DNA of 64,000 nucleotides from assembly GCA_020638635.1 (NCBI GenBank), contig JACKIE010000002.1:133140-197139 (forward strand), written 5' to 3'. A program made the translations under genes and the position numbers. This document shows positions 8,558 through 38,695 of the stretch, in pieces; positions within the stretch are counted from its first letter, which is position 1; every line of letters starts with the position of its first letter. Below the pieces are notes generated by a model. It had not been told where the DNA came from. It did no database searches and saw only the letters and a list, made by a program, of their open reading frames with translations. The DNA comes from Planctomycetota bacterium (GTDB lineage: Bacteria > Planctomycetota > UBA8742 > UBA2392).

Positions 8558-10780
8558 CTAGCGTACGCCGTCCGAGCCTTCTATGCCGACGGTGCCGCCC
8601 TTCAGGTTGAAAGTCAACATCGAGCCCCCGCGCTCGACCAGCATGATGACGTCGTCGGTTGCCTTCGTGCGACGGATCGCCTGGCCCAGGCCACCCCAAC
8701 TGGTAATAGCCTCGCTGTTGTACTCGATCACAAGGTCACCGACCTGCAGGCCCAGCTTGCTGGCCTGCGTCTCGGGGTAAATGTGCGTGAGCCGGCAGCA
8801 GTTCGGCTTCTGCATGCGCACCGTGACACTGTTATCGCCGGCGTTCAGGGACACGAACTGCGACTGCGAAGCCAGACCGCGTGAGGTGGCGACCAGGCTG
8901 TAGCTGCCGACCTCCACGAAGCTGATGGTCGCCACGCCTTCGCCGTTCGAATTGGCGTTGAAGTTCTTGATACCCGTCAGCTGTACATTGCCCCAGGCAA
9001 TCGGGTTGCCCTGCTCGTCCACCAGTTTCACGATCACCGTCGCCCCCGCGTCAACCACTACGTTGCGGGTGTTTTCGCCTTCGTTCAGCGTGACCATGTC
9101 GGAGTACACCTCTGTCCAGTTTCCCGTGGTGTATACCTCGATCCGCCACTGGCCCGGCTCGGCGGGGCCCAGCTTGTAGCTGCCGTCATCACCGACCTGC
9201 GCGTAACGGCCTGTACCCCAGCCGCCCCAACGATCCTCGCCTTCCTTTCGCAGGCGCACGCCGACGTTGCTGACCTTGCTGCCGCTGCTGCTGGTGATGG
9301 TGCCGGTCAACATTGCGCCTGTAGTGAACTTCAGTGTCAGCTCGTTGGCACCGGCGACAACCGTGATGTCCTGCTTGATGGCAGGCAGTCCTGCCGCTGT
9401 CACGGTCATCGTGTACTCGCCTGGACGCATGCCGGCAAACTCGGCCAAACCGGGCTCGGTGGAGGGCAGGCGCTCGGGTCGGGGCCAGTTGCGCCCGCCC
9501 TTCTCCTGAAACCAGACCGAGTCCGCCTCGACGGGCTCGCCGCCCGGGTTGCTCAGGCGCAGACGGATGATTGCGCCCACATCCATCCGGAAGTCCAGCG
9601 TGTTCTCACCCTGCACCAGGGTAACGGTCTGGGTCTCAGACATCTCGCCCAGTTCGGCCGTGAAGCGGGTTTCCTTGGGTGTCAGGGTGTCGAATCGATA
9701 TCGCCCCTTGCTGTCGGTGCGTACCGAGGGGCCGGAGCCGCCTTCCTGGTTCCAGCCGCGGCGGTTGCGGTCTTCGCCGCCGCCGACCCGCACCTGCACG
9801 TTGGCCAGAGGCTTCCCGTCCTTATCACTCACCACGCCGGTGAGGATCGCCGCCCGCTGCAACACAAGAACCGCTTCGTCGGCGCCGACCTCGATGTCCT
9901 GCGGCTTCTCCTGGGTAAAGCCCGTGGCCGTGATCTCAACCTGCATCAAGCCGGTTTTGGCGGGCAGGCTGAACCTCCCCTCCGAGTCGTCAAAGCCTCG
10001 GCTAATCGCTTCCCACTGGCGGTTCTGGCGCCATGCGCGCACCTTGAATTTCGTGACCGGCTTGCCGTCGGCGGTTTCCACACGCCCGCGCAGCAGACTC
10101 TCCGCCGACAACAGGATGGTGACCTCGTCGCCGGCGGCCACACGCCCCAGTTCGCCGCTGCCCTGGCCCTCACCGCGTGCGGCGAGATCGTACGCCAGGC
10201 TGCCGTCGAGGCCGCTGAATCGGAAGACGCCGCCCTGGCCGGTGGTGGTAGTTCGGGATTCCTTGGCCGCGCGGGTCAGGAATGCGGAAACTTCCGCCCT
10301 GTATCGTTCCATGTCATCGCGGTTGAACTCGGGGGCGTTGAGGTCAAGATCGCTGCGACGGGCCGTCACAGTGGCGCCGGTCACGGGGGCGCCGTCGGGC
10401 CCGATCACCTTGCCCTGGATGACCGCGTCGCCGCGATCGGAAGGATCGGACCGCGCCTCGACCTGCAACTCGCTGCCGATAGCCTTAGGCGCAGTGTTTT
10501 CTGCGGGCGTGGGCGTCGTGGTCGGGCCCGGCGATTTCTGCGCTTCACCTGCCCGAGGTGCTGCGGTTTCCGGGGCCGCGTGCAGAGGAGGAGCATCTCT
10601 GTCGTCCGCTGTCGGGGCACCCTCCAAGGCGCGCGCGCCCACCACATTCGCGGCCGGCCCGCGGTCATCCATTCCGCTCGTGATGAATCCGTATGCGCCG
10701 ACCATCAGCGACAATACGGTCACGACGAGCAAAACGATGTTCAGACCGCTGAATCGGTTGTCAGGCATGGGGCCCCTCAT
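8558..10780 (-). CDS. membrane-anchored protein with repeated carboxypeptidase-regulatory-like (CarboxypepD_reg) beta-sandwich domains and a C-terminal PDZ domain
   Basis: N-terminal TM helix. Multiple G.V.D..G.P...A.V repeats. The C-terminal [18 protein letters not shown] region is PDZ-like. Confidence 0.8.
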
Positions 10781-12114: not shown

Positions 12115-13239
12115 CTACGCCGGCTTGCCATTCGGAGCGGTATCAACGGGCGCGGGCGCAGCAACTCCCGGCGCGTCCGTGGGGATGGTCTCTATCAGGA
12201 TCGGCTTGCGCCTGATCTGCCAGAACAGCACCAGGCCACCGATCACCATGGACAGGCTGAGCAGTTGCCCGCGCGTGAGCCCAAGCAGGAAGCCAAGTCC
12301 CGGTTCCGGCTGGCGGAAGTTCTCGGTTACCATGCGCAACCCGCCGTAGCACACCAGGAACCAGGCAGAGAGCTGGCCGACGGTTTTCGTTCGCGCGCGC
12401 ACCAGCACCAGGATCAGCAACAGGATCACACCTTCGGTGATCGCCTGGTACAGCTGGCTGGGGTGGCGGGGCGTGGTTACCACCATGCGCGCATATTCGA
12501 TAATCCCGGAATCGTGTGAGCCAAGGTGGTATGAAAAGTAGTCGGCGCTTTCCAGGGGCATGCAGGGCTGGTCAGGCGTGTAGGGCTCGATGTGGTAGGC
12601 GATCTTGTCACCCGGCAACTCATCCCTGAACACCAGGAACATCTCACCCTGCTGGTTCGCCACCACCGGCCGCGAGATCGGTCCCCTCATGGGAAAACGC
12701 ACGGCCCAGGGAAGGTCGGACTCACGGCCCCACAGGTCGGCAGACAGGAAGTTCGCGATGCGCCCCAAGGGTGTGCCGAAGGCAACGAAGATCACAGTCT
12801 GATCCAGCAGGTGGAACCAAGGTCGCTTGATCCAGCGCGCCCAGAACCAGAATGCGAAGATCACGCCCAGGATCATGCCGTGGATCGTAAAGCCACTGGC
12901 GTTGGTCAGCAGGCGCCCGGGATGGCTGAAGTAATACTCGGGTTGATAAAAGATCGCCTCGCCCAGGCGCCCGCCGATCACGATGGCGGCCACCGCAACC
13001 AGGATGCTGTCCAGCACCTGTCGCCTGGTTACGCGGAAGCTTCCGCGCTTCCACCACACGTAGCACATGATCCATGCGAAAACGAAAATGATACTGTAGG
13101 CAAGGTGGAAGACGTTGATCGGAACCTCGAACCCCTCCGCGCCCGCCGGCACACTACTGAAGAAGTGGAGGCCGCCGTCGTACCAGGAGACCACTGTGGT
13201 GGAGTAGTCAGGGTCGCTGATGTATGGGTGGTCGATCAT
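12115..13239 (-). CDS. lgt: prolipoprotein diacylglyceryl transferase (enlarged, 374 aa)
   Basis: Contains GRIANFLSADLWGRESDLPWAVRFP and HPSQLYQAITEG signature regions and is polytopic. It carries an extra ~60-aa periplasmic insert. Confidence 0.9.
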   Translation of the reverse strand: MIDHPYISDPDYSTTVVSWYDGGLHFFSSVPAGAEGFEVPINVFHLAYSIIFVFAWIMCYVWWKRGSFRVTRRQVLDSILVAVAAIVIGGRLGEAIFYQPEYYFSHPGRLLTNASGFTIHGMILGVIFAFWFWARWIKRPWFHLLDQTVIFVAFGTPLGRIANFLSADLWGRESDLPWAVRFPMRGPISRPVVANQQGEMFLVFRDELPGDKIAYHIEPYTPDQPCMPLESADYFSYHLGSHDSGIIEYARMVVTTPRHPSQLYQAITEGVILLLILVLVRARTKTVGQLSAWFLVCYGGLRMVTENFRQPEPGLGFLLGLTRGQLLSLSMVIGGLVLFWQIRRKPILIETIPTDAPGVAAPAPVDTAPNGKPA

Positions 13240-13291: not shown

Positions 13292-13313
13292 GGGGGAGGC
13301 CAAAGCCTCCCCC
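13292..13313 (-). terminator. GC-rich hairpin downstream of the 13334 gene
   Basis: GGGGGAGGC-caaa-GCCTCCCCC. The T tract on the minus strand is interrupted. Confidence 0.4.
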
Positions 13314-13333: not shown

Positions 13334-13882
13334 CTACCCGCGTGATCCGCGAAGGCGAACGCCGGCCGCGAGGGCGCACACCACACCCAGCAGCGCCAGC
13401 AAGCTGAGGCCGCTACCTTCGGCGGTGGAACACTTCTCATCCTTCTTTTCCTTGCCGGCCGTGCCGAAGAAACGCACGGAGTACTTGGGCGTGTCGGGGT
13501 CATCGCTGTAGACGTCGAGCCAAACTTCCCATTTGCCCTTGGCGTTGGGTGTGATGTCCATCGTGAAGTCAACACTTGCCGACGGTGCCAGTGTTGTCGT
13601 GGCTGGTTGGGTGATGAACCAGTTGCATTGCACGGCGCCACCGCCGTCGCATGGGCGGTTCGTAGCGCTGGTGTCCAGAACCAGGTTGGTGCCTGTGCCA
13701 ATGTTCTGAATGCGGATCGTCAGGTTGTACGGCGCCTTGTCGGGGTGGTCGCCCAGGTCAATGGACGATCCGTGTGCGACAGTGGTACCCACCGGGTACT
13801 GCACAATGATGTCCTGCTGCGCCGCCAACACGCCGCAGAACAGCGCCATCACGCCAAACCATATCAAGAACTTGCCGGTCAT
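13334..13882 (-). CDS. small secreted single-Ig/PapD-like domain protein with Cys-containing C-terminal sorting-type signal
   Basis: Signal peptide MTGKFLIWFGVMALFCGVLAAQQ. RBS GGGGAGGA. C-terminus KCSTAEGSGLSLLALLGVVCALAAGVRLRGSRG. Confidence 0.75.
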   Translation of the reverse strand: MTGKFLIWFGVMALFCGVLAAQQDIIVQYPVGTTVAHGSSIDLGDHPDKAPYNLTIRIQNIGTGTNLVLDTSATNRPCDGGGAVQCNWFITQPATTTLAPSASVDFTMDITPNAKGKWEVWLDVYSDDPDTPKYSVRFFGTAGKEKKDEKCSTAEGSGLSLLALLGVVCALAAGVRLRGSRG

Positions 13883-14038
13883 CTTGTCCTCCCCACTGTG
13901 TGCCGCCCCAACGGCAATGCTCGAAAGGCCGTACGCGCGGCCCGATGAAACCCGGATGTCGATAGAGTGAAAAAATCATACCTCGCACAGGCTGAAAGGG
14001 CAAACTTTCAGGCATTTCCAGAGCGACATCAATGAAAA

Positions 14039-14062
14039 GGGGGAGGCGTGATCGCCTCCCCC
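14039..14062 (-). terminator. intrinsic terminator of surface-protein gene A
   Basis: GGGGGAGGCG-tgat-CGCCTCCCCC, followed on the minus strand by TTTTCATT. It lies 26 nt past the stop codon. Confidence 0.7.
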
Positions 14063-14087
14063 TGTTTGTGACTCTCGTGTGGTGCAA

Positions 14088-17000
14088 CTACGCCTTGCGC
14101 GTTCGAACGCGGAAGGCCAGCGCAACCAACCCCAGCAGGCTCAACAGCAGGAAGATTCCCGTGTTGCTGCTGGTGCCGGCCGCACAACCACCGCCGCCGC
14201 CGCCACCGCCGCCGCCGGAACCTCCGCCTGCCGCGTTAATGGTGAGCGAGAAGGCCTTGGTGCCTGAGTCATTCAGACTGTCCACTGCGCGCACCGTGAA
14301 GTTGGCGGTGACCGCCACCGTGGGGGTACCTGTGATATCGCCGGTGGCGCTAAGGCTCAAACCGGCGGGCAGGGCGCCCGAAACCACGCTGTAGGTGTAG
14401 GGCCCGGTGCCGCCTGTCGCGGTCAGGGTAACAGTAGTGTAAACCGCACCCACAGTGCCAGCAGGCAGCGGCGAGGTGTTGGAGATTACCACAGCGCCGG
14501 AGTTCCCCAGAACCAGGATGCTGACGTTCACGGTGACGGTGTTCGTGCCGTCATCAATGTCCATGCTGAACACCTGGGTTCCGACGTCGTTGGCAACCAG
14601 CGTCGCGCTGGGAGCCACGCTCAGGACGCCGCCGACCAGGCTGAAGGTGAATCCGCTGCCGGTCGTCGGGCCGCTGGACTGCGCCACGTTGCTCAGGTTC
14701 AGCACCTGGCCGGTGTTGCCGTCCGTTACATTGGCCAAGTTGACAGTCAGCGTGGCCGGGTCGTTTTCGGCGTAGGTGGTCAGGTACGGCGTGCCCGCGG
14801 ATCCGTCACCGCTGATGCCGGTGGCTGCGGTGTGCTGTGGAGCCACGTCCACCACGATGATACGGGCAGTGATGTTGGTGCTGCTGGTGCCGTCGTTGAC
14901 GGAGATCAGCCAGTCGTAGTTGCCGGGGGTGTTGCTGGCGGCTGCCGTGCCGGTCCACGTCATGCTGATGGGGCCGGCAGTCGGTGTGGTGACGTCGGCA
15001 GGCTGGGCGGTCAGGCCGGCAAGCGCGGTGGCCGGGTTGGTCACCGTGACTGTCATGTTGTCCGGCGTGGCGTCTGTAGCCTCCAGGGTGTCGTTGATCG
15101 CGGCGCCAGGGTTCACCGTGAGGGTGAACAGCCCGCCGCCGGCGTCTACCCAGTTCGAGCCCGTCTGGTTGGCCACGACCGGCGGCACGTTGCTGACCGC
15201 GTTGCCGCTGACCGTGAAATTGTATGGGTTCTCGTTCGGGTCGTTGTTGGCGATGCTGATGGTGAAGTCATAAGCGCCGGCCGCCACGGGCACGACGTTG
15301 ACCGTGAAGTTGGTGCTGCCGCTGGCCGGGACCGGAGTCGTCGGCGTGGCGGTCACGATGACGGAACTGACGTTGGTGCCCGCCGTGACGGCCACCAATG
15401 GGGTGCCCGTCAGCAGCAGGTCCAGGCCGCCGGTGTTCTGGATGGTGTAGGTCAGGTTGCTGCCTGCCAGCACGATTGCCACGGTGTCGGTGCCGCCGTC
15501 GGCTACCGGCGTGGCGCCGCGCAGCACGTCCATCTCCTGTGCGGCGGCGATTGTCAGGGTGTACGTGATGGTGTCCGTCAGCGTACCGTCGGATACCTGC
15601 ACGGTCAGCTCGATCGTGCCGACCATCGCGGCCGTGCCGGTCAGGCTGGCGGAATGTGGCGTGGTGCCGCCAGCGGGGGTGTAGGGGAAGGACTCGTTGA
15701 AGCCGGCCTGCGCACCCGTGAGCGTACCGCCCGTCACGGTTATGGTGAAATTGAGTGTCTGGGCGGGGTTGCTGTCCGTGGCCGTGAAGGTCACGTCCAG
15801 CGCGTCGCCCACCTGCAACGAGCCGGTCCAAGCGGGGTCAGCGCCGCCGAGGGTGGCGCCGCCGAGGGTCGAGAACGGCAGGGTGAGACCGCCGTTAGTC
15901 GTGCCCAGTGTTCCGGTAGCGCCGTTGTCCTGCCAGTCGGTCGCGTCGTTGTTGTCCTGGGTGCCGACCCGCGCGTAAAAGTTGCCGTTGTCGGGGACGC
16001 CGTTGCCGCTCCATTCGGGGCCGGGGGTCAGGCCGGTGAAACCACCGGCGTTGACGCTCATGTTGGCGATGTCCGTCGAGGTCCAGATGAACGCCACGAA
16101 ATCACGGATGTTGCCGGCGGTGTCTACCAGCATGATCCATCCCGCACCGCTGGGATCCCAGAAGATGTTGTTGCCCCAGGGGTTGGTCGCGCCGTCAGTC
16201 CAGTACTGAACCTGGCCGGCGGTGAAGTTGCCCAATGTCTGGGTGATCGGGTTGGCGATGTTGATGTCCACGTAATCGTCGGAGATGATCACCTGCCAGC
16301 CGGTGGCGTCAAAAGCTGATGCGCTGGTGTTCTGAATCTCCAGCGAGTCGTCGCCGGTGTTGCTGGTCATTTCAGTGATCAGGAGCGGCGAATTCGCCGT
16401 GGCCGGAGCCGGGGCCTGCACACCCGGGGTCGGGTCTGCGCCGGTACCCTGCACAATCACCGTGTAGGTGCCCTCGTCGGCATCGTTGTTCGTGATCGTG
16501 ATGGTGAATTCATACGGGCCGATCGCCGTAGGCGTGACGGCTACGATGAAGGTCGCCGAGTTGCCTGCCGGAATCGGCGAAGCCGGCGTCAGGGCCGGGC
16601 TGGCAGTCACGGTTACGTTGCCCACACCGCTCGGCGCACAGGCGATACCCGATACGGTCAGCGGGTTGGTTGCGCCGAGGTTGTCTACGGTGAAGGTGTA
16701 GTTAGTCGGTCCGCCGATGTCGGTGTTGCCAAGGTTGGTCGTGCCGGTGGACTGCACCGCGACGAGTGACGGATTCCGCACCTGGATTTCAGGGTCGCCC
16801 AGCGGTGTGATCGCGGCGTCATATTCTTCGCACTGGCCGAATCCGTAGATGCCGACCGGGTCATTGGGTACCGCGTTGTAGACCTGGATGACTCTGAATC
16901 GCGTCGCAGGTTGTGCCGGGGTGGCGACGGGAACGGTGAAGTTGATGGTGCCGCTCTGGCTGGGCGTCAGCACAGCGGTGGCGCCGAGGAATTCGTTGGC

Positions 17001-17330
17001 GTCCGCGTAGTCACCGTCACCGTTGAGGTCGAGCCAGGCGCCGATGCCGCCATCCCAGGACGGGTTATTCAGCACGGTCATGGTGTAGGCCTGCCCGGGC
17101 GTGAATGACGCTCCCACGCCTACGTGGTAGTTGTAGTCCGTCGCCGAATCCGCAATCGCACCGGAGTCGAAGGGCGGCGTGGTGTTGATCTGGATGTTCG
17201 CACACCAGTCACCTGTAGCGCCCGTGTTGTTGTACGTCGGCGGCAGGTATTGCGCCGCCAAAGCTGTACTGGCCACGGCGGCAAGGCTGGCCACCGCCAG
17301 CAACGGTAGGTACTTCCCATTAAAAATCAT
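14088..17330 (-). CDS. giant surface protein A (about 1080 aa): GEVED-like, lamin-tail-like, PapD-like/Ig repeats, He_PIG Ig domain, Gly10-Cys C-terminal signal
   Basis: Start trimmed to ATG 17330 (RBS GGGGAG; signal peptide MIFNGKYLPLLAVASLAAVASTALA). GQCEEYD (GEVED-like). LLITEMTSNTGDDSLEIQN (LTD-like). LRGATPVADGGTDTV modules. GPYTYS..LPAGLSL..G.I.GTPT (He_PIG). The tail has the tripartite signal. Confidence 0.85.
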   Translation of the reverse strand: MIFNGKYLPLLAVASLAAVASTALAAQYLPPTYNNTGATGDWCANIQINTTPPFDSGAIADSATDYNYHVGVGASFTPGQAYTMTVLNNPSWDGGIGAWLDLNGDGDYADANEFLGATAVLTPSQSGTINFTVPVATPAQPATRFRVIQVYNAVPNDPVGIYGFGQCEEYDAAITPLGDPEIQVRNPSLVAVQSTGTTNLGNTDIGGPTNYTFTVDNLGATNPLTVSGIACAPSGVGNVTVTASPALTPASPIPAGNSATFIVAVTPTAIGPYEFTITITNNDADEGTYTVIVQGTGADPTPGVQAPAPATANSPLLITEMTSNTGDDSLEIQNTSASAFDATGWQVIISDDYVDINIANPITQTLGNFTAGQVQYWTDGATNPWGNNIFWDPSGAGWIMLVDTAGNIRDFVAFIWTSTDIANMSVNAGGFTGLTPGPEWSGNGVPDNGNFYARVGTQDNNDATDWQDNGATGTLGTTNGGLTLPFSTLGGATLGGADPAWTGSLQVGDALDVTFTATDSNPAQTLNFTITVTGGTLTGAQAGFNESFPYTPAGGTTPHSASLTGTAAMVGTIELTVQVSDGTLTDTITYTLTIAAAQEMDVLRGATPVADGGTDTVAIVLAGSNLTYTIQNTGGLDLLLTGTPLVAVTAGTNVSSVIVTATPTTPVPASGSTNFTVNVVPVAAGAYDFTISIANNDPNENPYNFTVSGNAVSNVPPVVANQTGSNWVDAGGGLFTLTVNPGAAINDTLEATDATPDNMTVTVTNPATALAGLTAQPADVTTPTAGPISMTWTGTAAASNTPGNYDWLISVNDGTSSTNITARIIVVDVAPQHTAATGISGDGSAGTPYLTTYAENDPATLTVNLANVTDGNTGQVLNLSNVAQSSGPTTGSGFTFSLVGGVLSVAPSATLVANDVGTQVFSMDIDDGTNTVTVNVSILVLGNSGAVVISNTSPLPAGTVGAVYTTVTLTATGGTGPYTYSVVSGALPAGLSLSATGDITGTPTVAVTANFTVRAVDSLNDSGTKAFSLTINAAGGGSGGGGGGGGGGCAAGTSSNTGIFLLLSLLGLVALAFRVRTRKA

Positions 17331-17530
17331 TGTCACTCCCCACGAGTTCACGCGGCCCGATGGCCGCAAGCTAAGTCTTCCGTTCTCGGGGAACACGCAG
17401 GAGCACGGCGCGCAATGCGCCTGTGGCCCAATCTGCTGACTAAGTCCCCACGAACTTGATGTGAAAGTTTGTCACGAAATTACCACGAGGCAAGCAAAAA
17501 GAACTCAATATGCACTAAGTGTAGCGACTG
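17331..17530 (-). promoter_or_regulatory. conserved 5' leader/promoter region of gene A with stem-loop 17352-17367
   Basis: Collinear with the region upstream of gene B (blocks at 17361-17384, 17442-17459, 17483-17525). Hairpin GCGGCC-atcg-GGCCGC lies 21 nt upstream of the ATG. Confidence 0.45.
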
Positions 17531-17634
17531 ACTGCACTTCGGCAGCTTTAGAACGCCAACTGGCCTGGACGGACGACCAGTAAGTGGAGGGTTCGGTTCC
17601 ACGGAAGGGCGCGATTGCTTCAACAAACAAACAA

Positions 17635-17658
17635 GGGGGAGGCGTGATCGCCTCCCCC
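17635..17658 (-). terminator. intrinsic terminator of surface-protein gene B
   Basis: Same hairpin GGGGGAGGCG-tgat-CGCCTCCCCC, followed on the minus strand by TTGTTTGTTTGTTG. Confidence 0.7.
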
Positions 17659-17681
17659 TTTGTGTTGCGATTGTACTTCGA

Positions 17682-20600
17682 CTAGGCCTTGCGCAGGCGG
17701 AAGGCCAGCGCGGCCAGGCTCAGCAGGCCCAGCAGCATCATCCAGCTGTACGGCGTGTCGCCGCCAGTGGAGCACTTGCTGTCGTCGCCACCGCCGCCGC
17801 CGCTGCCGCTGCTCGGGGCGTTGATGGTGATCTGGAAGCTGGCGACCGCCGAGTCACTTACGTTGTCCACGGCGCGCACGTCGAAGCTGACCGTGCCCGC
17901 GGTGGTCGGGGTGCCGGTGATGTCACCGGTGGCGCTGAGGCTCAGGCCGGCCGGCAGGCTGGTGCCGTTGGCCAGGCTGTAGGTGTAGGGTCCGGTGCCG
18001 CCCGTGGCGGTGAGGGTGACCGTGGCGTAGACCGAGCCCACGGTGCCCGCGGCCAGCGGGCTGGTGTTGGTGAAGGTGATGGCGCCGGAGTTGCCCAGCA
18101 CCGTGATGCTGACGTTGACCGTGACGGTGTTGGTGCCGTCGTCGATGTCCATGCTGAACACCTGGACGCCGATGTCGGCCGCAACCAGCGTGGCGGTCGG
18201 TGCGACGCTCAGCACGCCGCCGGCCAGGCTGAAGGTGAAACCGCTTCCGCCGGTGGGGCCACTGCCCTGTGCGATGTTGCTCAGGGTAAGTGTCTGGCCG
18301 GTGTTGGCGTCGGTAACGCTGGCCAGGTTGATGCTGAGTGTGACCAGGTCGTTTTCTGCGAAGGTGGTCAAGTACGGAGTACCCACTGAGCCGTCGCCGC
18401 TGACACCCGTTGCAGCCGTGTGCTGCGGTGCAACGTCTACCACGATGATGCGGGCTGTGATGACCGTCGAGCTGGTGCCGTCGTTGATGTCGATGGCCCA
18501 GTCGTAGTTGCCCGGGGTGTTGCTGGCCGCCGCCGTGCCGGTCCAGGTCAGGCTGATGGGTCCCGCTGTCGGGGTCAAGATGTCCGCGGGTTCGGCTGTC
18601 AAACCGGTGAGTGCGGTGCCCGGGGCGGTGACGTCAACCGTCATGTTGTCCGGCGTGGCGTCAGTGACATCGAGGGTGTCCGCGATGGCTGCGCCCGGGT
18701 TCACGGTGAGGGTGAACAGGCCGCCGCCCGCGTCCACCCAGTTGGAGGTGCCGACACTTACGACCGGCGGAACATTGGCTACCACGTCGAGGGAAACCGT
18801 GATGGTCTGGTCGTTTGCCACGTTTCCGTCGGTTACGACCACGTCAAACACCTGGGTGCCGATGTCGGCCGCCACCAGGGTGCCGGCAGGCGCGACGGTG
18901 AGGGCGTTGGCCGCCAGCGAGAACTGGAAGCCGGTGCCGCCGGTCGGGCCGCTGGTCTGGCTGGGCGTGCCGGAGATGGTGACTGTCTGGCTGGTGTTGG
19001 CGTCGGTGACCGTTGCCAGGTCAACGCTGTTGGCGCCGGTGTTGCCCACCGCGAAGGTGTACGTGTACGGCGTGGCCACCGAGCCGTCGCCGCCGCTGGC
19101 GTTCAGAATCGTGTGCTGAGGCGGCACGTCCACGATGATGATCCGCGCGGTGATGCTGACGACGGTGGTCCCGTCGTCTATGTCGATCAGCCAGTCGTAG
19201 TTGCCCGGGGCGTTGCTGCCGTCAGCCGTGCCGGTCCAGGTCAAGCTGATGGGGCCGGCGGTCGGGGTGGTGATGTCCACGGGCTGGGCGGTCAGGCCGG
19301 TGAAGGTTGGGCTGGTGACCACGTCCACGGTCATGTTGTCGGGCGTGGGGTCGGTGACTTCCAGGGTGTCGGCGATGGCCGCGCCCGGGTTCAGTGTAAG
19401 GGTGAACAGGCCGCCGCCGGCGTCAACCCAGTTGGAGCCGGTCTGGTTGGCCACAACCGGTGGAACGTTGGAGACCGCGTTGCCCGAGACCGTGAAGTCA
19501 TACGGGTTTTCGTCCAGGTCGTCGTTGTCGATGCTGACGGTGAAGTCGTAAGCACCGGCCGCAGTCGGAACCACGTTGATGACGAATGTGGTGTTGCTGC
19601 CGCCGGCTACCGGGGTCGTGGGCAGGGTAGTCACAGTAACGGTGGAGACGTTGGTGCCGGCAGTGACGCTCACCAGCGGCGTGCCGGTGAGATTCAGGCT
19701 TTCGCCACCGTTGTTCTCGATGGTGTAGGTCAGGTTCGTGCCGGCGGTCAGGATCTGAACGGTGTCAGTACCGCCATCGGCAACCGGCGTCGCGCCGCGC
19801 AGAACGTCCATCTCGGCCGGGTAGCCGATCCAGACGTCGTCGAAAGCGAAGCCGTCCGCCTGGGTGTTGGTATCCGAGCCGAACACCACACGCAGGAACA
19901 CCGAAGCCTGGCCGGACAAACCGGTCAGCTGGTGCATCGCCGTTACCCAGCCCAGGCTGCCGGCCGCAGCGTCGCCGGTCCAGCCATCAAGCTGTCCGGA
20001 GCCCGCCTGCAGGCCGTCGATCGAGTTGAAATTGAACCAGTTGTTGGGGTCGCCGGATGCGCCGACATTCTGCCAGCTTGCGCCGTTGTCGATGGACGAC
20101 TGCAGAACCGCGCCGTCCCAGGTGTTTTCGGCGTCCCACCAGATGGCCATGCGAATCCACGGGTCGGAAGTCAGCGCCGACATGTTGAAGCGCGGGCTCA
20201 CGACAGCGCCGTCCTCATTGTCCAGATACGCGCCTGTCGCGTCGGTAGTCCAGGAGTTGGTGCCTGATGCCGCGGAGTTGATTACGGCGCCGGCCGGTGT
20301 GGCGAGTTCCCAGCTTGAGACGTTCCCGGAGACGGTCCAGTCGTCCGCGGTTGCAGCCGTCTCGAAGTCTTCAGTGTATGGGAAGGTTGAAACCGTCCCC
20401 TTGTGGCGGACGGTGATGCTTGAGGCGTCGTTGCCGGGGGTCGAGTCGCCGGCCAGGTTCGTCTGCGCGTCAATGACGTAGGTGGTTGAAGGCGTGGACA
20501 GGTTCGCCGTGGCGGTGAACACAAACGTAGCCTCGGAGAGATACAGCAGCGTGCCGGGGAAGTTCTCCACCACCGGGGTGCCGCTGTTCACCTGGAACTG

Positions 20601-22304
20601 AACCGGGAAGTTGGTCTGGGTCTGTCCGAAGTTGCGGATGGTTACGCTGACAGTTTCCGTGGCGGTCAGGCCCGCGCCGGTTGCCGGGGAGTTGATGGCA
20701 ACCACGCCGACATCGGCCGCGGGGCCGGTGAACTCCTGTACGGCAACCGTGTCAATCGCGATGTCGTGACTGAAGCTGCTGCCGATGTCGTCCACGCGGA
20801 ATACGAACGCGACGATGTTACCCAGGTGGGCGCTCAGGCCGACGGCGAAGTTCGTCCAGACGGTCAGTGTCGGGTCGGCGATGTGGCCGATCGGCGGCAG
20901 GATGTCCAACGTGGTGGTGGAGGTGGTGTAGTCAATGATGTCCACGTGAAGGAAGTTGTTGGTGGGGCCCACACCGTTGTTGTCGTTGGCATGCACCCAG
21001 AAGCTCAGCATCGGGGCGATCGCGCCCACCAGGCTGATGGGCGGCGTCATCATCACCACGTCGCCGGTGTTCGGCGTGTTGGAATCTTCCACGTACAGGT
21101 AGCGGCCGGTCGCGGTACCTGTGGACTGGTCCACGCTGGGTCCGGTACCTGCTGAAGACGTGCCGCCGATGTCGATGTACCAGTCGTTTGCGCCGTCTGT
21201 GGTAACGTTCTGCCAGGGAGCCGGCAGCGGAACCGGGTTGGTGATGTCCGTCGCCCAGGCGTCAAAATTCTCGAGGAACGGGAACGCGGCCGGAGTCTGT
21301 ATGTTGAACGTGACGGTCCGGTTGGTGACGTTGGAGCCGTCCGTAAGCGAGAAGTTGTAGGTGTAGGTTCCGCCGGCAGTGGGGGTTCCGGTGAACGTAA
21401 GCACGGTCGGGACCGTGACGCCGGTTTGACTGGAGGGCGCAGTCACACCAGGGGCGGGAGTCACCGGTGTAACCGTGATATCGATGGTGCCGCCCTGGGG
21501 GTCATTGGCTTCCAGTGTGGCGTTGGCCAGCGCCGATCCCTGAAGGCCCGCGTAGGTCAGACTACCGGAGAACGCGGATCCCGTCGCCGGGACCAGCGAG
21601 GGGAACGTGTTTGTCAGCTCCGTGTTCATGTTCGCGGCAATCTCGGCACCGGTTCGAGCAACGCTCCAAAGGCGGAACTCGTCCATGTCGCCCAGGAATG
21701 CCTGAGTGGTGGAAGCCTGGTTGTTTCCCGCGAAAAAGCCGCTGCCTGTCCCGGTGCCGGTCTGTGCAACGTTCTGCGCGGACTGGACGCCGTCCAGGTA
21801 GGCAGTCATGGTTCCGGCTCCGGCGTCGTAAACGAAGGCTACGTGGTGCCAGCTGCCGTCGTTGGCGTTGTTCAGGTTGATGTTGGTGAAACCGCCACCG
21901 CGCAGGGTGATGTTTGCTGCACCCGCCGCGCCGGCTGCGAAAATGCGGAAGTTGCCGGCTCCCGGATCGCCGCACAGATAACCGAAAGTCCCGCTCGTTC
22001 CGATCATCCAGAATTCGATGGTGAACGATCCGGTCGTGTTGTGGCTATAGCCGGTCGGGGCGACAGAGGCCGCAGCGCCGCGAGAGGCAGCACCGAGCGG
22101 CGGTGTTGCCGTGTTCCAGATCGGGGCCGGCGTAAAGGTTGCCGGATTTGCACCCTGGCCAGGGTTGGCGTCGTTGGCCACCGTCGAGCCCGTTCCCTCA
22201 TTGAACTTGTAGTAAAGAACGTCAGGGTACTGCGCGCGCAGGACCGCCGCGCCCATCACGGCTATCAGAAACAGTGGAAGCGCCCACTTAACCTTGCCCA
22301 ACAT
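17682..22304 (-). CDS. giant surface protein B (about 1540 aa): LamG, choice-of-anchor/MAM-like, PapD-like/Ig repeats (internally duplicated), He_PIG, Cys C-terminal signal
   Basis: Start trimmed to ATG 22304 (RBS GGGGAG; signal peptide MLGKVKWALPLFLIAVMGAAVLRAQ). LamG: GSFTIEFWM..WHHVAFVYD..DEFRLWS. Two copies of the PPVV..SNWVDAGGGLFTLT..PGNYDW module. Confidence 0.85.
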   Translation of the reverse strand: MLGKVKWALPLFLIAVMGAAVLRAQYPDVLYYKFNEGTGSTVANDANPGQGANPATFTPAPIWNTATPPLGAASRGAAASVAPTGYSHNTTGSFTIEFWMIGTSGTFGYLCGDPGAGNFRIFAAGAAGAANITLRGGGFTNINLNNANDGSWHHVAFVYDAGAGTMTAYLDGVQSAQNVAQTGTGTGSGFFAGNNQASTTQAFLGDMDEFRLWSVARTGAEIAANMNTELTNTFPSLVPATGSAFSGSLTYAGLQGSALANATLEANDPQGGTIDITVTPVTPAPGVTAPSSQTGVTVPTVLTFTGTPTAGGTYTYNFSLTDGSNVTNRTVTFNIQTPAAFPFLENFDAWATDITNPVPLPAPWQNVTTDGANDWYIDIGGTSSAGTGPSVDQSTGTATGRYLYVEDSNTPNTGDVVMMTPPISLVGAIAPMLSFWVHANDNNGVGPTNNFLHVDIIDYTTSTTTLDILPPIGHIADPTLTVWTNFAVGLSAHLGNIVAFVFRVDDIGSSFSHDIAIDTVAVQEFTGPAADVGVVAINSPATGAGLTATETVSVTIRNFGQTQTNFPVQFQVNSGTPVVENFPGTLLYLSEATFVFTATANLSTPSTTYVIDAQTNLAGDSTPGNDASSITVRHKGTVSTFPYTEDFETAATADDWTVSGNVSSWELATPAGAVINSAASGTNSWTTDATGAYLDNEDGAVVSPRFNMSALTSDPWIRMAIWWDAENTWDGAVLQSSIDNGASWQNVGASGDPNNWFNFNSIDGLQAGSGQLDGWTGDAAAGSLGWVTAMHQLTGLSGQASVFLRVVFGSDTNTQADGFAFDDVWIGYPAEMDVLRGATPVADGGTDTVQILTAGTNLTYTIENNGGESLNLTGTPLVSVTAGTNVSTVTVTTLPTTPVAGGSNTTFVINVVPTAAGAYDFTVSIDNDDLDENPYDFTVSGNAVSNVPPVVANQTGSNWVDAGGGLFTLTLNPGAAIADTLEVTDPTPDNMTVDVVTSPTFTGLTAQPVDITTPTAGPISLTWTGTADGSNAPGNYDWLIDIDDGTTVVSITARIIIVDVPPQHTILNASGGDGSVATPYTYTFAVGNTGANSVDLATVTDANTSQTVTISGTPSQTSGPTGGTGFQFSLAANALTVAPAGTLVAADIGTQVFDVVVTDGNVANDQTITVSLDVVANVPPVVSVGTSNWVDAGGGLFTLTVNPGAAIADTLDVTDATPDNMTVDVTAPGTALTGLTAEPADILTPTAGPISLTWTGTAAASNTPGNYDWAIDINDGTSSTVITARIIVVDVAPQHTAATGVSGDGSVGTPYLTTFAENDLVTLSINLASVTDANTGQTLTLSNIAQGSGPTGGSGFTFSLAGGVLSVAPTATLVAADIGVQVFSMDIDDGTNTVTVNVSITVLGNSGAITFTNTSPLAAGTVGSVYATVTLTATGGTGPYTYSLANGTSLPAGLSLSATGDITGTPTTAGTVSFDVRAVDNVSDSAVASFQITINAPSSGSGGGGGDDSKCSTGGDTPYSWMMLLGLLSLAALAFRLRKA

Positions 22305-22505
22305 CCGAATCTCCCCAGTTTTAGGCGCGGCCTGCCGGCCGCAAGCTAAGTCTTCGGTTCGTGGCACAATCGTGGAAGCCAGGCACGCGTGACGCACCTG
22401 CAAGGACCACCTTCAGAAGTCCCCACGAACTTGACGCGTAAGTCTGTCTCGGATTGATCCGGAGGCAAGCAAAAAGGATGCAAGAAGCACTAAGTGTTGT
22501 GGCAT
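22305..22505 (-). promoter_or_regulatory. conserved 5' leader/promoter region of gene B with stem-loop 22327-22342
   Basis: Collinear with the gene A leader. Hairpin GCGGCC-ggca-GGCCGC lies 22 nt upstream of the ATG. Confidence 0.45.
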
Positions 22506-22600
22506 AAGCCACTTCCACAGGCATGGAATTGTAGTTCGTCTCGGTTGGGGTACGCATCCGGTGGCGCAACCCACCCTGATGGAGCGTTTAGATAGAAAAA

Positions 22601-22624
22601 GGGGGAGGCGTGATCGCCTCCCCC
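22601..22624 (-). terminator. intrinsic terminator of surface-protein gene C
   Basis: Identical hairpin GGGGGAGGCG-tgat-CGCCTCCCCC, followed on the minus strand by TTTTTCTATC. Confidence 0.7.
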
Positions 22625-22647
22625 TTTGTGTTGCGATTGTGCTTCGA

Positions 22648-25600
22648 CTAGGCCTTGCGCAGGCGGAAGGCCAGCGCGGCCAGGCTCAGCAGGCCCAGCA
22701 GCAGCATCCAGCTGTACGGCGCGTTGCCGCCGGTGCTGCAACCGCCGTCGTCGCCACCGCCGCCGCCGCTGCCGCTGCTCGGGGCGTTGATGGTGATCTG
22801 GAAGCTGGCGACCGCCGAGTCATTGAGGCTGTCCACCGCGCGCACGTCGAAGCTGACCGTGCCCGCAGTGGTCGGGGTGCCGGTGATGTCACCGGTAGCG
22901 CTGAGGCTCAGGCCGGCCGGCAGGCTGGTGCCGTTGGCCAGGCTGTAGGTGTAGGGTCCGGTGCCGCCCGTGGCGGTGAGGGTGACCGTGGCGTAGACCG
23001 AGCCCACGGTGCCCGCGGCCAGCGGGCTGGTGTTGGTGAAGGTGATGGCGCCGGAGTTGCCCAGCACCGTGATGCTGACGTTGACCGTGACGGTGTTGGT
23101 ACCGTCATCGATGTCCATGCTGAAGACCTGGGTGCCGACGTCGTTCGCATTCAGCGTGGCCGACGGGGCGACCGACAGCACGCCGGTCAGCAGCGTGAAG
23201 GTGAAGCCGCTGCCGGTGGTCGGGCCGCTGGACTGCGCAACGTTTGTCAGGTTCAGCACCTGGCCGGTGTTGGCGTCGGTCACGTTCGCCAGGTTGGTGC
23301 TCTGCGTGGCCAGGTCATTCTCGGCGTACGTCGTTGCGTACGGGGTGCCCACGCTGCCGTCGCCGGAGATGCCGGTGGCGGCGGTGTGCTGCGGGGCCAC
23401 GTCCACCACGATGATGCGGGCAGTGATGCTGACCGTGCTGACACCGTCGCCGATGTCGATGGCCCAGTCGTAGTTGCCCGGAGTGTTGCTGCCGTTCGCG
23501 GTGCCGGTCCAGGTCAGGCTGATGGGTCCGGCGGTCGGCGTGGTGATGTCCACGGGCTGGGCCGTCAGTCCGGTGAAGCTGGGGCTGGTGACCACATCCA
23601 CGGTCATGTTGTCGGGGGTGGGGTCGGTGACTTCGAGGGTGTCCGCGATGGCTGCGCCCGGGTTCACGGTGAGCGTGAACAGGCCGCCACCCATGTCTAC
23701 CCAGTTTGAGCCGGTCTGGTTGGCCACGACAGGCGGCAGGTTGCTGATGGCGTTGCCGCTGACCGTGAAGTCGTACGGGTTTTCGTCACTGTCATCGTTG
23801 TCGATGCTGACCGTGAAGTCGTAGGCACCGGCCGCTGTCGGAACCACGTTGATGACGAAGGTGGTGCTGCCGCCGCCCGCCACCGGGCTGGTGGGCGGAG
23901 TGGTGACGGTGACCGTGCTGACGTTGGTGCCGGCCGTGACCACGACCAGCGGGGTGCCGGTCAGGTTCAAGTCAACGCCGCCAGTGTTTTCGATGGTGTA
24001 GGTCAGGTTGCTGCCGGTGGTCAGGATCTGCACGCCGGTATCCGTGCCGCCGTCGGCGACCGGAGTAGCGCCGCGCAGGACGTCCATCTCCGCAAGTTCA
24101 TAGAGCTGGATGTCGTCAAACACGTGGCCGTCTGTGGCAAACGGGAAGTTGTCATCGCCCTGGAAGCGGATGATGACCTGGTTGGTGTAGTTAAGCGTCG
24201 CCGCAACCAGAGCCGCGGACACGTCCACGACCACGTTCTGCAGGACTGTGGTGCCGTTCTGAAGCACGTACAGCTGCAAGGACCAGGTTGCTCCGCCGTC
24301 GAGGCTCAGGTACACGCCGTCCGGGGCCGTGTTTTCATCGCCGGTTTCCGCCCAGTTGAAGTCAAGAATCAGCGTGTCCGTGTTCGCGTTGTAGGCCGAC
24401 AGGTCGAATGCATAGTCAATCGCGCCGGCGGACTGTCCATTGGGGAAATCGATCCCGGCCTGGTTCGTGCCGCTGCTTGGCGTCACGCCGGAAGCGGCGA
24501 CAGCGCCGAACTGAATCTGCGACTGGATAGCGTAGGTCACTGTGGTGGGCGGAGTTCCGCCAGAGGGGAACGTGCCGTCAATTTGCGTACTGCGGTTGAA
24601 GATCGTGGTTGCCGGCTCGAAGTCATCCAGGAACGGCAGAGCGCTGAAGTAACCGCTCACGTTGTGGACAGAGCCGGTGGTCGGAGTGCCCGAAACCGGA
24701 CCCGGTGTTGCGACCACAGCGGTCACGTCACAGCCGAAAGTGTCGCCAGGCGTGGCCGTGCCGGCAAGGCTGAAGCTGATCAGGTAGTTCCCGACCGTCG
24801 GGTTGGTCACAACCGAAGTGAGGCCGGTGAACGAAGCAGTTCCGGAGGCAAACACCTGGGTTCCGCCGATCTGGGTATCGGTACCGGTTTCCAGCGTGCC
24901 GTTGGAGTTGGTGTCCTCCCACAGCTTGACTTCGGTGATCTGGCCATCTGGCAGAGTGCCGGTCTTGGCCACCTCTACACTGGTGATGGTCTGGGCGCCG
25001 GCCGCGGATGTCGCCGTGAAGCGGGCGACTACAGCATCGGTTGCAGGTGCGAAGATGGAAGCTGCGGTTGGGCTGTTGTCCGCTATAGCCAGGTCTGGAG
25101 ACGCCGCGTCACCGGCGATGGTGAAATCGTACGGATTCTCGTTCGGGTCGTTGTTGGCAAAGGTGATCGTGCACGACCAAGCGCCCGCCGCAGTAGGTGT
25201 CACGTCCACGACCAGGGTCGTGCTGTTGCCGGTGGTCACAGGCGAGGTGGGCTGGGTTGAAATGGTGGCCGTGCAGTTCACCAGTGTTCCGGGAGCCGCC
25301 ACAGGCGTGGTAATGGTGAGGTCCTGGAGGCCTCCATTGGAGATTGAATAAGTGACAGGCACCGTGATGCCGGTGACCAGAGTGCCGACGTTGTCCGTGC
25401 TGCCGTCGGCAACGTTGGTTGCACCGCGCGAAACTCCAATTTCAGAGTTGCCAGCGCCACCGCCCACGATAGCCAGCTGCCAGGACAACAGTACGCCAGT
25501 GTCGCCGGTAGCCGTGTCGGCAATGCCGAGGATCCAGGTCCCATTTGGTGAACCGGAGTTATACAGCGCGTCAAACGCCGCGGTTCCCTCCGGAATGTAG

Positions 25601-26043
25601 ACGGCTGCCGTGAACGGAGCCGCGCCGGCAGTAATGTTGACTGTGCCTGGTGTCACCGGGTCTGAGGCGGAGGATATCTGTGTGTAGACGAATGGTGCAA
25701 CAGCACCCGTACCAAAGTTGTTGGCCGATCCGCCATTGCCGCTGCAGAGGTCAATAACACCGGCCGGAGGCGTGCCCGCGTAACTCCCAGGGTCCGCTAC
25801 GCCGGGAGGAATCAACCATATGCTGAGGTCGGAATCCCAAGTGTGGTCGATGCGCAGGTCAACGCGCAATGACGTGACTGCACCGGTAACACCGGTTACG
25901 TTCATCGAATCAGACTGGCTGACGTTGTCGGCGATCGGAAGGTTTGGATTGCTGGTGAAGGTCTGCGCGCTCAGTGCCGTCGATACAATGGCTGTTACCG
26001 CCATTGTCGCCAGCAGCGCATGTAATGTCTTTGCTCGAAACAT
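22648..26043 (-). CDS. giant surface protein C (about 1131 aa): proprotein-convertase P-domain-like, PapD-like/Ig repeats, He_PIG, Cys C-terminal signal
   Basis: Start trimmed to ATG 26043 (RBS GGGAGA; signal peptide MFRAKTLHALLATMAVTAIVSTALSAQ). P-domain-like LRVDLRIDHTWDSDLSIWLIPPG..GTWILGIAD. The C-terminal 150 aa is nearly identical to gene B. Confidence 0.85.
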   Translation of the reverse strand: MFRAKTLHALLATMAVTAIVSTALSAQTFTSNPNLPIADNVSQSDSMNVTGVTGAVTSLRVDLRIDHTWDSDLSIWLIPPGVADPGSYAGTPPAGVIDLCSGNGGSANNFGTGAVAPFVYTQISSASDPVTPGTVNITAGAAPFTAAVYIPEGTAAFDALYNSGSPNGTWILGIADTATGDTGVLLSWQLAIVGGGAGNSEIGVSRGATNVADGSTDNVGTLVTGITVPVTYSISNGGLQDLTITTPVAAPGTLVNCTATISTQPTSPVTTGNSTTLVVDVTPTAAGAWSCTITFANNDPNENPYDFTIAGDAASPDLAIADNSPTAASIFAPATDAVVARFTATSAAGAQTITSVEVAKTGTLPDGQITEVKLWEDTNSNGTLETGTDTQIGGTQVFASGTASFTGLTSVVTNPTVGNYLISFSLAGTATPGDTFGCDVTAVVATPGPVSGTPTTGSVHNVSGYFSALPFLDDFEPATTIFNRSTQIDGTFPSGGTPPTTVTYAIQSQIQFGAVAASGVTPSSGTNQAGIDFPNGQSAGAIDYAFDLSAYNANTDTLILDFNWAETGDENTAPDGVYLSLDGGATWSLQLYVLQNGTTVLQNVVVDVSAALVAATLNYTNQVIIRFQGDDNFPFATDGHVFDDIQLYELAEMDVLRGATPVADGGTDTGVQILTTGSNLTYTIENTGGVDLNLTGTPLVVVTAGTNVSTVTVTTPPTSPVAGGGSTTFVINVVPTAAGAYDFTVSIDNDDSDENPYDFTVSGNAISNLPPVVANQTGSNWVDMGGGLFTLTVNPGAAIADTLEVTDPTPDNMTVDVVTSPSFTGLTAQPVDITTPTAGPISLTWTGTANGSNTPGNYDWAIDIGDGVSTVSITARIIVVDVAPQHTAATGISGDGSVGTPYATTYAENDLATQSTNLANVTDANTGQVLNLTNVAQSSGPTTGSGFTFTLLTGVLSVAPSATLNANDVGTQVFSMDIDDGTNTVTVNVSITVLGNSGAITFTNTSPLAAGTVGSVYATVTLTATGGTGPYTYSLANGTSLPAGLSLSATGDITGTPTTAGTVSFDVRAVDSLNDSAVASFQITINAPSSGSGGGGGDDGGCSTGGNAPYSWMLLLGLLSLAALAFRLRKA

Positions 26044-28086: not shown

Positions 28087-28180
28087 GAGTTGTTCCCCAC
28101 GGTTTGGCCGGAGTGTAGCGGATCAAGGCCGGGAGGGGAGGGCGCGGCCCGGGAAACAACTCGCTGAATTGCCCAGTGCA

Positions 28181-36723: not shown

Positions 36724-37351
36724 TGTGCTACGCGAACACCTGATGACGTTCGAGACGTTCTTCTCGGCCATCGGCTTCAAGTCGCGGCTGGGCAAGGTGT
36801 GGGGGCTGCTGGCGCTGGCCGGCAAGTCGCTCAGCGCCGCGGACATCGCCAACGAGCTCGACATGAGTGCCGGCTCGGTCAGCGAATGTCTGTCCGAATT
36901 GCGCGAGTGGGGCGCAGTCACCAGCGAATTCTCAAGCGAACACCGCTGTCAGATGCACAGCGCGGTCAGCGACACCATGAGCATCGTGACCACCGTACTG
37001 CGCCGCCGCGAGCAGCTGGCCGTGCAGAACTTCAAGGACAACGCCCGCAGCGCCCTGCAGTACGTGACCGAGCGCTACGGCAGCAACGACGCCCGCGTGC
37101 ACACACTGCAGAGCATCGTGACGACTAGTGAAATTGCCGAAGCCACCATCCAGTTCTTCGTGGCCGCCAGCAGCGCGGTTCCCAAGAACGACGAGTCGCG
37201 CCTGGCCCGCGTGGTCAAGCGCATGGCCGCCATCGGCATGAAAATGCCCGGCGAGATCAACAAGTTCCGCAACGGCCGTCGTAAGACCGGCCAGCTGAAC
37301 GGCAACGCCACCTCGGCGCCTGTGGAAGAAGCGGAGGACGCCCATGTATAG
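36716..37351 (+). CDS. GbsR/MarR-type winged-helix transcriptional regulator
   Basis: ATG 36716 overlaps the oleD stop by 8 nt. KVWGLLALAGKSLSAADIANELDMSAGSVSECLSELREWGAV is HTH-like. Confidence 0.7.
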   Translation: MDNVLREHLMTFETFFSAIGFKSRLGKVWGLLALAGKSLSAADIANELDMSAGSVSECLSELREWGAVTSEFSSEHRCQMHSAVSDTMSIVTTVLRRREQLAVQNFKDNARSALQYVTERYGSNDARVHTLQSIVTTSEIAEATIQFFVAASSAVPKNDESRLARVVKRMAAIGMKMPGEINKFRNGRRKTGQLNGNATSAPVEEAEDAHV

Positions 37352-38579: not shown

Positions 38580-38580
38580 A

Positions 38581-38646
38581 GCCCCGGCCAGTTCGCGAAG
38601 CGAACGTGCCGCAGGAACGCACTGCGTTCCGAGGATGGCCGGGGGC
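38581..38646. repeat. composite REP-like palindromic element (intergenic)
   Basis: Outer stem GCCCCGGCC/GGCCGGGGC enclosing GTTCGCgaaGCGAAC and GGAACGCactGCGTTCC. Confidence 0.6.
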
Positions 38647-38695
38647 GAAGGGAACAACAAACAACGCCCGCAAGGGCACAACCAAGGAAGAAGCA

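Follow-up and report, generated by a model that had tools for sequence, protein, structure and literature searches.

The closest described relatives of the system reported here are the MYXO-CTERM proteins, whose C-terminal tails were shown in 2025 to be cleaved by myxosortase (PMC11980579). The acyltransferase of this class "remains unidentified", and Lgt is the leading candidate (PMC11980579). MYXO-CTERM is curated as restricted to Myxococcota, and a scan carried out in 2022 on over 14,000 representative proteomes placed the myxosortase core only in Myxococcota and Bradymonadales, in a preprint whose text makes no mention of planctomycetes (Haft 2023 bioRxiv 10.1101/2023.06.07.544157). Metagenome-assembled genomes (MAGs) like the source of the DNA studied here were probably outside that proteome set. 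We analysed a stretch of 64,000 nucleotides from a Planctomycetota bacterium (the window; positions 133,140 to 197,139 of contig JACKIE010000002.1, assembly GCA_020638635.1). It encodes five surface proteins with a Cys-containing C-terminal tail, four of them in a cluster, and the gene directly downstream of this cluster encodes a paralogue of Lgt, here called Lgt-A. We consider it somewhat probable that the five tails represent a divergent planctomycete signal of MYXO-CTERM type, whose Cys would be diacylglycerylated by Lgt-A and whose helix would be removed by a protease encoded elsewhere.

The five tails had been quoted in a preliminary description made from the letters of the window, and all of them were recovered by translation of the open reading frames (ORFs) and by a tail regular expression, which matches these five and no other stop-to-stop ORF of 60 or more amino acids in any of the six frames. 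The tripartite sorting-signal layout proposed there holds for every tail: a linker, C-S-T or C-A-A, about nine polar residues, an uncharged helix of 17-19 residues and an R-x-R-x(1-3) end, with 30-32 residues from the Cys to the C-terminus. The linker before the Cys is poly-Gly or, in the 182-aa protein, rich in Lys, Glu and Asp. The suspected PVC context agrees with the planctomycete source. Lgt-A, the tail-bearing proteins and their tails lie in the window as follows.

12115..13239, minus strand: Lgt-A, 374 aa, a paralogue of Lgt; its start lies 94 nt beyond the end of the small tail gene, in the same orientation
13334..13882, minus strand: protein 1, 182 aa, with a signal peptide (..LAA before QQ), a choice-of-anchor-D-like Ig domain, a Lys/Glu/Asp linker and the Cys tail
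13337..13432, minus strand: tail 1, CSTAEGSGLSLLALLGVVCALAAGVRLRGSRG
14088..17330, minus strand: surface protein 2 (ORF to 17396, probable start MIFNGK at 17330), with GEVED, choice-of-anchor D / HYDIN-type Ig, LTD and He_PIG domains and the Cys tail
14091..14186, minus strand: tail 2, CAAGTSSNTGIFLLLSLLGLVALAFRVRTRKA, with poly-Gly ahead of the tail
17682..22304, minus strand: surface protein 3 (ORF to 22403, probable start MLGKVK at 22304), with Laminin_G_3, MAM, CARDB and He_PIG domains and the Cys tail
17685..17774, minus strand: tail 3, CSTGGDTPYSWMMLLGLLSLAALAFRLRKA
22648..26043, minus strand: surface protein 4 (ORF to 26133, probable start MFRAKT at 26043), with P_proprotein, choice-of-anchor D, CARDB and He_PIG domains and the Cys tail
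22651..22740, minus strand: tail 4, CSTGGNAPYSWMLLLGLLSLAALAFRLRKA
47846..48838, plus strand: 3' part of the fifth Cys-tail gene, with two He_PIG domains and the tail
48743..48835, plus strand: tail 5, CAATGGNSYWMFAIGLLAMLGFALRMRARRE

A tail peptide ahead of the helix reads ...KKDEKCSTAEGSG. Proteins 2-4 are paralogues across about 500 C-terminal residues, where they share 60-81% identity. Protein 5 has only He_PIG in common with the other tail proteins, and protein 1 only its internal Ig-like domain, with its tail outside every significant alignment. The tail therefore sits on different bodies. It occurs on at least three protein architectures and in related genomes, which removes the concern that it might be confined to the window paralogues. 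The bodies consist of surface or adhesin modules (choice-of-anchor D, GEVED, MAM, Laminin_G_3, CARDB, He_PIG); choice-of-anchor D domains owe their name to their occurrence with varied anchors. Protein 1 scores 19.9 bits with NF012200, which is under the cut-off.

All four clustered proteins carry type-I signal peptides that end in A-x-A followed by Q. A regular-expression scan of the window genes for the lipobox [LVI][ASTVI][GAS]C found none, a scan that is uninformative by itself. Neither at the signal peptides nor before the tail Cys is there a lipobox, so that on the substrate side these are not classical lipoproteins. The A-x-A motif is followed by Gln (LAAQ, LRAQ, LSAQ) both in the window (13882, 17330, 22304, 26043) and in a related locus, L001 (5669, 9370), and the mature N-terminus would then be Gln, which may be cyclised to pyroglutamate. 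The fifth gene is disrupted: the 118 codons upstream of 47846 (47492-47846) contain no start codon, and 47846-48838 encodes no signal peptide. N-terminal fragments start from about 46896 in another frame and include the signal-peptide fragment MRSIMRLALCTLVLLAAGSLRAAV... The gene is either a pseudogene or the product of indel errors in the assembly.

GTDB species-representative genomes were scanned with an alignment of the window Lgt type, which returned 80 loci. More than 20 loci yielded 42 distinct tails. The Cys is common to all of them and C-S-T to most, while linker and protein body vary; positions -3 to -1 of the Cys are occupied by G, K, D or E. A looser pattern of Cys, helix and basic end gave 11 matches in about 1.3 Mb of Lgt-B (the second paralogue, below) and outgroup loci. 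These are spurious ORFs, Lgt C-termini or CorA, and none of the 11 has the C-S-T/linker signature. In a distant Planctomycetaceae MAG (locus L004), a He_PIG protein at 553-2961 ends in ...AAAGCTMGCAFVSMAGIWIITALMVVTCVKNWIFARAR, with a two-Cys GCxxGC that is closer to the myxobacterial GCGC.

Curated CTERM models (NCBIfam release 20) place the window tails just below the cut-off of the nearest class, which the preliminary description had named as MYXO-CTERM. TIGR03901.2 and TIGR03382 of this class are two of the small number of sorting-domain models that match the tails at all. None of the five tails reaches a curated CTERM cut-off. With TIGR03901.2 (cut-off 20 bits) four tails score 7.9-11.6 bits, tail 4 being at 11.6 bits, and with TIGR03382 (cut-off 15.85 bits) two score 13.7-15.6 bits. 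Tail 2 comes closest to the latter with 15.6 bits and has 8.6 bits with TIGR03901.2; tail 1 matches no NCBIfam CTERM model at E<=10. TIGR03901.2 is matched by 26 of 33 related-genome tails at E<=10, more than by any other model. When ten tails of relatives were scored individually, four passed a MYXO-CTERM model (27.3, 24.6 and 21.8 bits with TIGR03901.2; 20.5 bits with TIGR03382) and another four scored 15-19.6 bits with TIGR03901.2. The tail family straddles the MYXO-CTERM threshold. Since relatives pass and the window tails remain under the cut-off, we place these tails as a divergent planctomycete branch at the edge of the MYXO-CTERM class. This suggests that the curated MYXO-CTERM models under-call Cys-bearing CTERM sorting in the PVC superphylum.

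Other classes fit less well. The best JDVT-CTERM score (NF033191) is 19.4 bits in a relative with a cut-off of 27, and the DP motif is absent from the tails. PEP-CTERM (TIGR02595) stays at or below 11.2 bits with a cut-off of 16 and there is no PEP motif; the GlyGly-CTERM model has no match at E<=10 among 33 tails. The comparison with NCBIfam models, which the preliminary description had suggested, assigns the tail to no defined family whose sortase is known from this lineage. Isolated tails do score 15.9-19.8 bits with LPXTG_anchor (TIGR01167, cut-off 15.9), over model positions 4-31 only. We rejected an LPXTG/sortase identity: the matches cover the helix and the basic tail, and the pentapeptide is absent. 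Planctomycetota are a diderm phylum.

By profile hidden Markov model, predicted fold and catalytic residues, Lgt-A is a bona fide Lgt. It scores 148.9 bits with TIGR00544 (cut-off 118.9) and 163 bits with PF01790, and the protein is 100% identical to MCB9934607.1. Its AlphaFold2 model (predicted local distance difference test 87, predicted template modelling score 0.81) has a sole significant match in the PDB, E. coli Lgt 5azb (E 2.5e-14, template modelling score 0.68). Compared with the E. coli enzyme, H103, R143, N146, G154, Y235, R239, E243 and R246 are kept, and Y26, G27 and E151 are replaced by F44, H45 and D168. In E. coli Lgt, Y26, H103, R143, N146, G154 and R239 are absolutely required (PMC13251419). 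The window enzyme keeps five of these six, and Y26 is the one that became Phe. Of 16 Lgt-A sequences, 13 have the Y26F exchange and 12 have E151D.

The head domain, arm-2 and H103 set the protein-substrate specificity of Lgt (PMC13251419). In the AlphaFold2 model of Lgt-A the enlarged periplasmic head is a six-stranded beta domain of about 80 residues (about residues 185-255), and the N-terminus has three extra beta strands. We considered the long head insertion and the N-terminal xDHPx..TT segment as marks of a tail-linked enzyme and rejected both. They are not diagnostic, because Lgt-B and some housekeeping Lgts have comparable ones; one such housekeeping Lgt, in locus L032, adjoins lspA.

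The preliminary description had stated that no cognate sorting enzyme is visible. This part finds no support, as the gene next to the four clustered tail genes encodes Lgt-A, and at least 18 species keep Lgt-A next to Cys-tail genes, even where the locus has been rearranged. Upstream DNA of 1.6 kb or more is available for 18 Lgt-A loci, and in all 18 a Cys-tail gene of the same orientation ends 30-119 nt before Lgt-A. Protein 1 is the usual immediate neighbour, with homologues in 11 of 16 Lgt-A loci, of which P0135 and P0139 are named "hypothetical protein" in NCBI records; a homologue search with the 182-aa protein gave 9 close matches only and no further lineages. In L025, L026, L028 and L029 the neighbour is instead an unrelated protein of 1100-1800 aa with the same tail. 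Because the family of the immediate neighbour differs among loci, the conserved thing beside Lgt-A is the tail and not one protein family. Cys-tail genes adjoin Lgt homologues at 63, 54, 45 and 37% identity, even where the other neighbours have changed. Counted over the loci, there are 33 tails in 146 kb upstream of Lgt-A and 1 in 185 kb downstream.

Each of 18 related planctomycete species encodes two Lgt paralogues, and both pass the Lgt equivalog model. Lgt-A sequences are 46-78% identical to the window enzyme; Lgt-B is 28-31% identical, has 416-509 aa and scores 129-133 bits with TIGR00544. In three near-complete assemblies the two genes lie on the same contig at a distance of about 83-91 kb, and in two of the three Lgt-B loci examined (L043, L034) the gene comes after pheT. 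Lgt-B keeps Y26, which is Tyr in all Lgt-B sequences, and E151. No real tail is found in 407 kb around Lgt-B of the same genomes, nor at outgroup Lgt loci from Verrucomicrobiota, Bdellovibrionota and Alphaproteobacteria. The Lgt-B proteins (L033-L060, for example L043 9992-11521) carry an acidic or low-complexity C-terminal extension. Their N-terminus has a beta segment xNHPxL..W/F-TT like that of Lgt-A, which is absent from canonical-type Lgts in the same alignment.

From sequence and gene neighbourhood, Lgt-A is the best candidate for the cognate modifying enzyme of the tail Cys. In the pathway that we propose, an ordinary type-I signal peptide would export the protein by the Sec route. The C-terminal helix with its cytoplasmic R-x-R would then hold it N-out in the cytoplasmic membrane, as expected from the sequence and the positive-inside rule. 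The Cys, about 9-12 residues outside the helix and after a flexible linker, would receive a diacylglyceryl group from phosphatidylglycerol through Lgt-A; this step is suggested by the conserved gene linkage, the divergence of the paralogues and the published MYXO-CTERM hypothesis. More speculatively, an endopeptidase encoded outside the window, by analogy a myxosortase-like CPBP protease, would cut after the lipidated Cys and remove the helix, leaving the protein lipid-anchored and free for transport to the cell surface. Lgt-B would serve ordinary N-terminal lipoproteins. That Lgt-A is moreover a dedicated "C-terminal lipoprotein" diacylglyceryl transferase, evolved for a Cys upstream of an inversely oriented C-terminal helix, is a more tentative proposal, which we regard as plausible but short of probable.

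Several observations weigh against the proposed pathway. A lipid on the tail Cys, here or in any MYXO-CTERM protein, is so far putative. No lipobox precedes the Cys, and the helix lies on the opposite side of it from that in known Lgt substrates. The Y26F exchange may mean altered or reduced activity and not a new specificity. A protease for the tail was found neither in the window nor in the fetched loci. Among the polytopic ORFs of the 64 kb, as the preliminary description had said, there is no exosortase, rhombosortase or CPBP protease; those with coding-like GC content at third codon positions, tail proteins aside, are Bax1-I, a probable NuoA (by position) and Lgt. A crude scan of polytopic ORFs for the CPBP motif EExxxR...FxxxH...HxxxN/D in the window and 91 fetched loci, a weak negative, found none either. 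A hairpin separates the small tail gene from Lgt-A, co-transcription of the two being hypothetical. A single clade with shared synteny accounts for the majority of the 18 species, and many adjacencies therefore cannot be counted separately. Truly independent cases are only a few, namely the close clade, the rearranged group L002, L003 and L025-L028, and the P0047 lineage. P0047 is the Lgt of the distant Planctomycetaceae MAG GCA_026647195.1 (L004), where it directly follows tail genes; a second Lgt of this MAG, P0046, lies elsewhere with no tail genes nearby. In a crude neighbour-joining tree P0047 falls outside Lgt-A. A single clade of all tail-adjacent Lgts thus finds no support in this quick tree, which is too crude to decide the matter. 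Lgts of the same broad type (P0048, P0049 and L030-L032) were considered as further lineages and, with no tail genes nearby, serve as negative controls. Such tail-free Lgts fit a clade-specific specialisation but show as well that the link is not general. A third, canonical lgt in these genomes is possible, because the scan patterns would miss one. Finally, MrtX processed a MYXO-CTERM tail in E. coli with the housekeeping Lgt only (PMC11980579), and a dedicated Lgt paralogue is therefore not required in principle.

The strongest alternative, which we regard as unlikely, is the following: the tails are of MYXO-CTERM type, Lgt-A is simply one of two general Lgts, its position is inherited synteny, and a housekeeping Lgt or another enzyme lipidates the tails, if anything does. 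Synteny around Lgt-A is broadly kept in the close clade (PDZ protein, methyltransferase, nuo genes, Bax1-I), but the adjacency survives in the locally rearranged L002, L003 and L025-L028 and in the distant L004. The tail genes upstream of Lgt-A vary in number from 1 to 4 and in type, while the Lgt-A-adjoining tail is constant. In some bacteria lgt occurs in as many as four copies for unrelated reasons (PMC13251419), the enzymes of E. coli itself are enough for MrtX-dependent processing (PMC11980579), terminator-like hairpins stand between the genes, and Lgts with the same N-terminal type elsewhere have no tail neighbours. Against this alternative, tails are essentially absent from the 407 kb around Lgt-B and the 185 kb downstream of Lgt-A, and the substitution at an essential substrate-side residue is found in Lgt-A and not in Lgt-B.

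Quite improbable, in our view, is that the tail acts as a permanent C-terminal membrane anchor, with the Cys used for a disulfide or having no special role and with neither lipidation nor cleavage. The failure to find a protease in the window or the fetched loci and the scores of the window tails under all curated CTERM cut-offs would fit such an anchor. It does not account for an invariant Cys at fixed spacing and a conserved C-S-T across 42 tails whose linker is free to vary, nor for relatives' tails that pass MYXO-CTERM models. The adhesin-like and choice-of-anchor bodies are typical of sorted surface proteins, and the linkage to Lgt-A would be left unexplained. That Lgt-A acts on an N-terminal lipobox of its neighbours as ordinary lipoproteins, with the C-terminal Cys unrelated, would call on the one activity proven for Lgt-family enzymes (PMC13251419) but is very improbable, given that the neighbours' type-I signal peptides end in A-x-A before Q without [LVI][ASTVI][GAS]C and that the lipobox expression matched none of the window genes.

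The surroundings of the locus contain the following further elements.

8558..10780, minus strand: membrane-anchored protein with CarboxypepD_reg repeats and a PDZ domain at its C-terminus, a downstream neighbour of Lgt-A that 15 of 16 loci keep (context only)
13292..13313, minus strand: GC-rich hairpin GGGGGAGGC-TTTG-GCCTCCCCC with a poor T-run, between the small tail gene and Lgt-A
14038..14063, minus strand: terminator-like hairpin 3' of the gene for surface protein 2

The hairpin at 13292-13313 may be a partial terminator. Its GC-rich stem is nearly identical to that at 14038-14063 (GGGGGAGGC...GCCTCCCCC), and near-identical stems after consecutive tail genes suggest a repeated intergenic element. 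A Pro-rich protein of 415 aa (10861-12108) without Pfam match is kept in 6 of 16 Lgt-A loci. Another protein without Pfam match, of about 500-525 aa, is encoded divergently beside the Lgt/tail cluster in L002 (11065-12576), L003 (5996-7516) and L004 (4497-6074), which represent three lineages at a greater distance from the window. Its C-terminus is alike in the three loci (KGYG.FESL) and its N-terminus was read by eye as a helix-turn-helix; it is a possible regulator of the cluster. Flavin-dependent halogenases of the Trp_halogenase family are encoded by two genes in tandem, which lie beside a cluster resembling type-II fatty acid synthase/polyketide synthase (FAS/PKS) genes (26341-29878 and 33878-44265). 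This cluster encodes an AMP-ligase, a 3-beta-hydroxysteroid dehydrogenase/epimerase, a ketoacyl synthase, an acyl carrier protein, two amine-oxidase-type flavoproteins, a FabA-like dehydratase and a short-chain dehydrogenase/reductase like enoyl-ACP reductase. Lgt-A of L001 and L002 is flanked by lipid-type genes of a similar kind. Judged by gene content, the halogenases and the FAS/PKS-like genes may form a pathway for a halogenated polyene or lipid.

To our knowledge Lgt is universal and usually single-copy, and comparative genomics could therefore not single it out as the acyltransferase. A duplicated Lgt with one copy locked beside tail genes offers the first gene-neighbourhood evidence for this guess; in our search of the literature, no Lgt paralogue had been linked to a C-terminal sorting signal. 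The planctomycete branch, as a new lineage, would extend Cys-bearing CTERM sorting to the PVC superphylum. If the proposal holds, the Lgt family would be the missing lipid transferase of Cys-bearing CTERM signals (MYXO-, JDVT-, Synerg- and CGP-CTERM-like), and the compact cassette of substrate and enzyme would be a system for proving the role of Lgt. The 182-aa substrate and its neighbouring enzyme form a minimal pair that turns the open lipidation question into a two-gene experiment. The finding further asks for a mechanism by which an Lgt might handle a substrate that has no lipobox and whose topology is reversed.

Compared with the described systems, the window tails share with GlyGly-CTERM/rhombosortase and PEP-CTERM/exosortase the C-terminal helix with a basic tail on secreted surface proteins of diderms. 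Lipid attachment has been proposed there too, in those systems after cleavage, but their signals have no invariant Cys, and the window contains no rhombosortase or exosortase. The invariant Cys and the tripartite layout are shared with JDVT-, Synerg- and CGP-CTERM, and the compact cassettes with the enzyme beside its substrates with JDVT-CTERM. In contrast to these, the window tails lack the DP motif (JDVT), the Pro in the helix (Synerg) and the CGP motif, their scores are well under the cut-offs, and the linked enzyme is a lipid transferase and not a CPBP protease. With the Lgt/LspA/Lnt pathway the locus has in common the Lgt fold and the phosphatidylglycerol-binding and catalytic residues of Lgt-A; as there, the modified group would be a Cys thiol on the outer side of the cytoplasmic membrane, close to a helix that is subsequently cut off. 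Canonical lipoproteins have their Cys directly after the helix, whereas here it is C-terminal and precedes the helix by 9-12 residues, so that the helix is oriented the other way round. There is furthermore no lipobox, LspA could not do the cleavage, and Lgt-A differs by Y26F, G27H and its head domain.

The MYXO-CTERM/myxosortase system (MrtX/MrtC/MrtP; TIGR03901.2, TIGR03382, NF040914) differs in that the window tails come from Planctomycetota and all five score under the cut-off. They have a single Cys in C-S-T or C-A-A, where MYXO-CTERM often has a second Cys (GCGC). The crude scan found no myxosortase in the window or the 91 loci, the rest of the genome being outside this search, and the window tail genes cluster beside a putatively dedicated Lgt paralogue, for which there is no report for MYXO-CTERM. 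The likeness extends to most other features: the tripartite tail with its invariant Cys, uncharged helix and Arg cluster, the Gly-rich low-complexity sequence that often precedes the tail, the large adhesin-like and choice-of-anchor carriers, model scores around the cut-off, and a hypothesised lipidation of the Cys with Lgt as the candidate enzyme.

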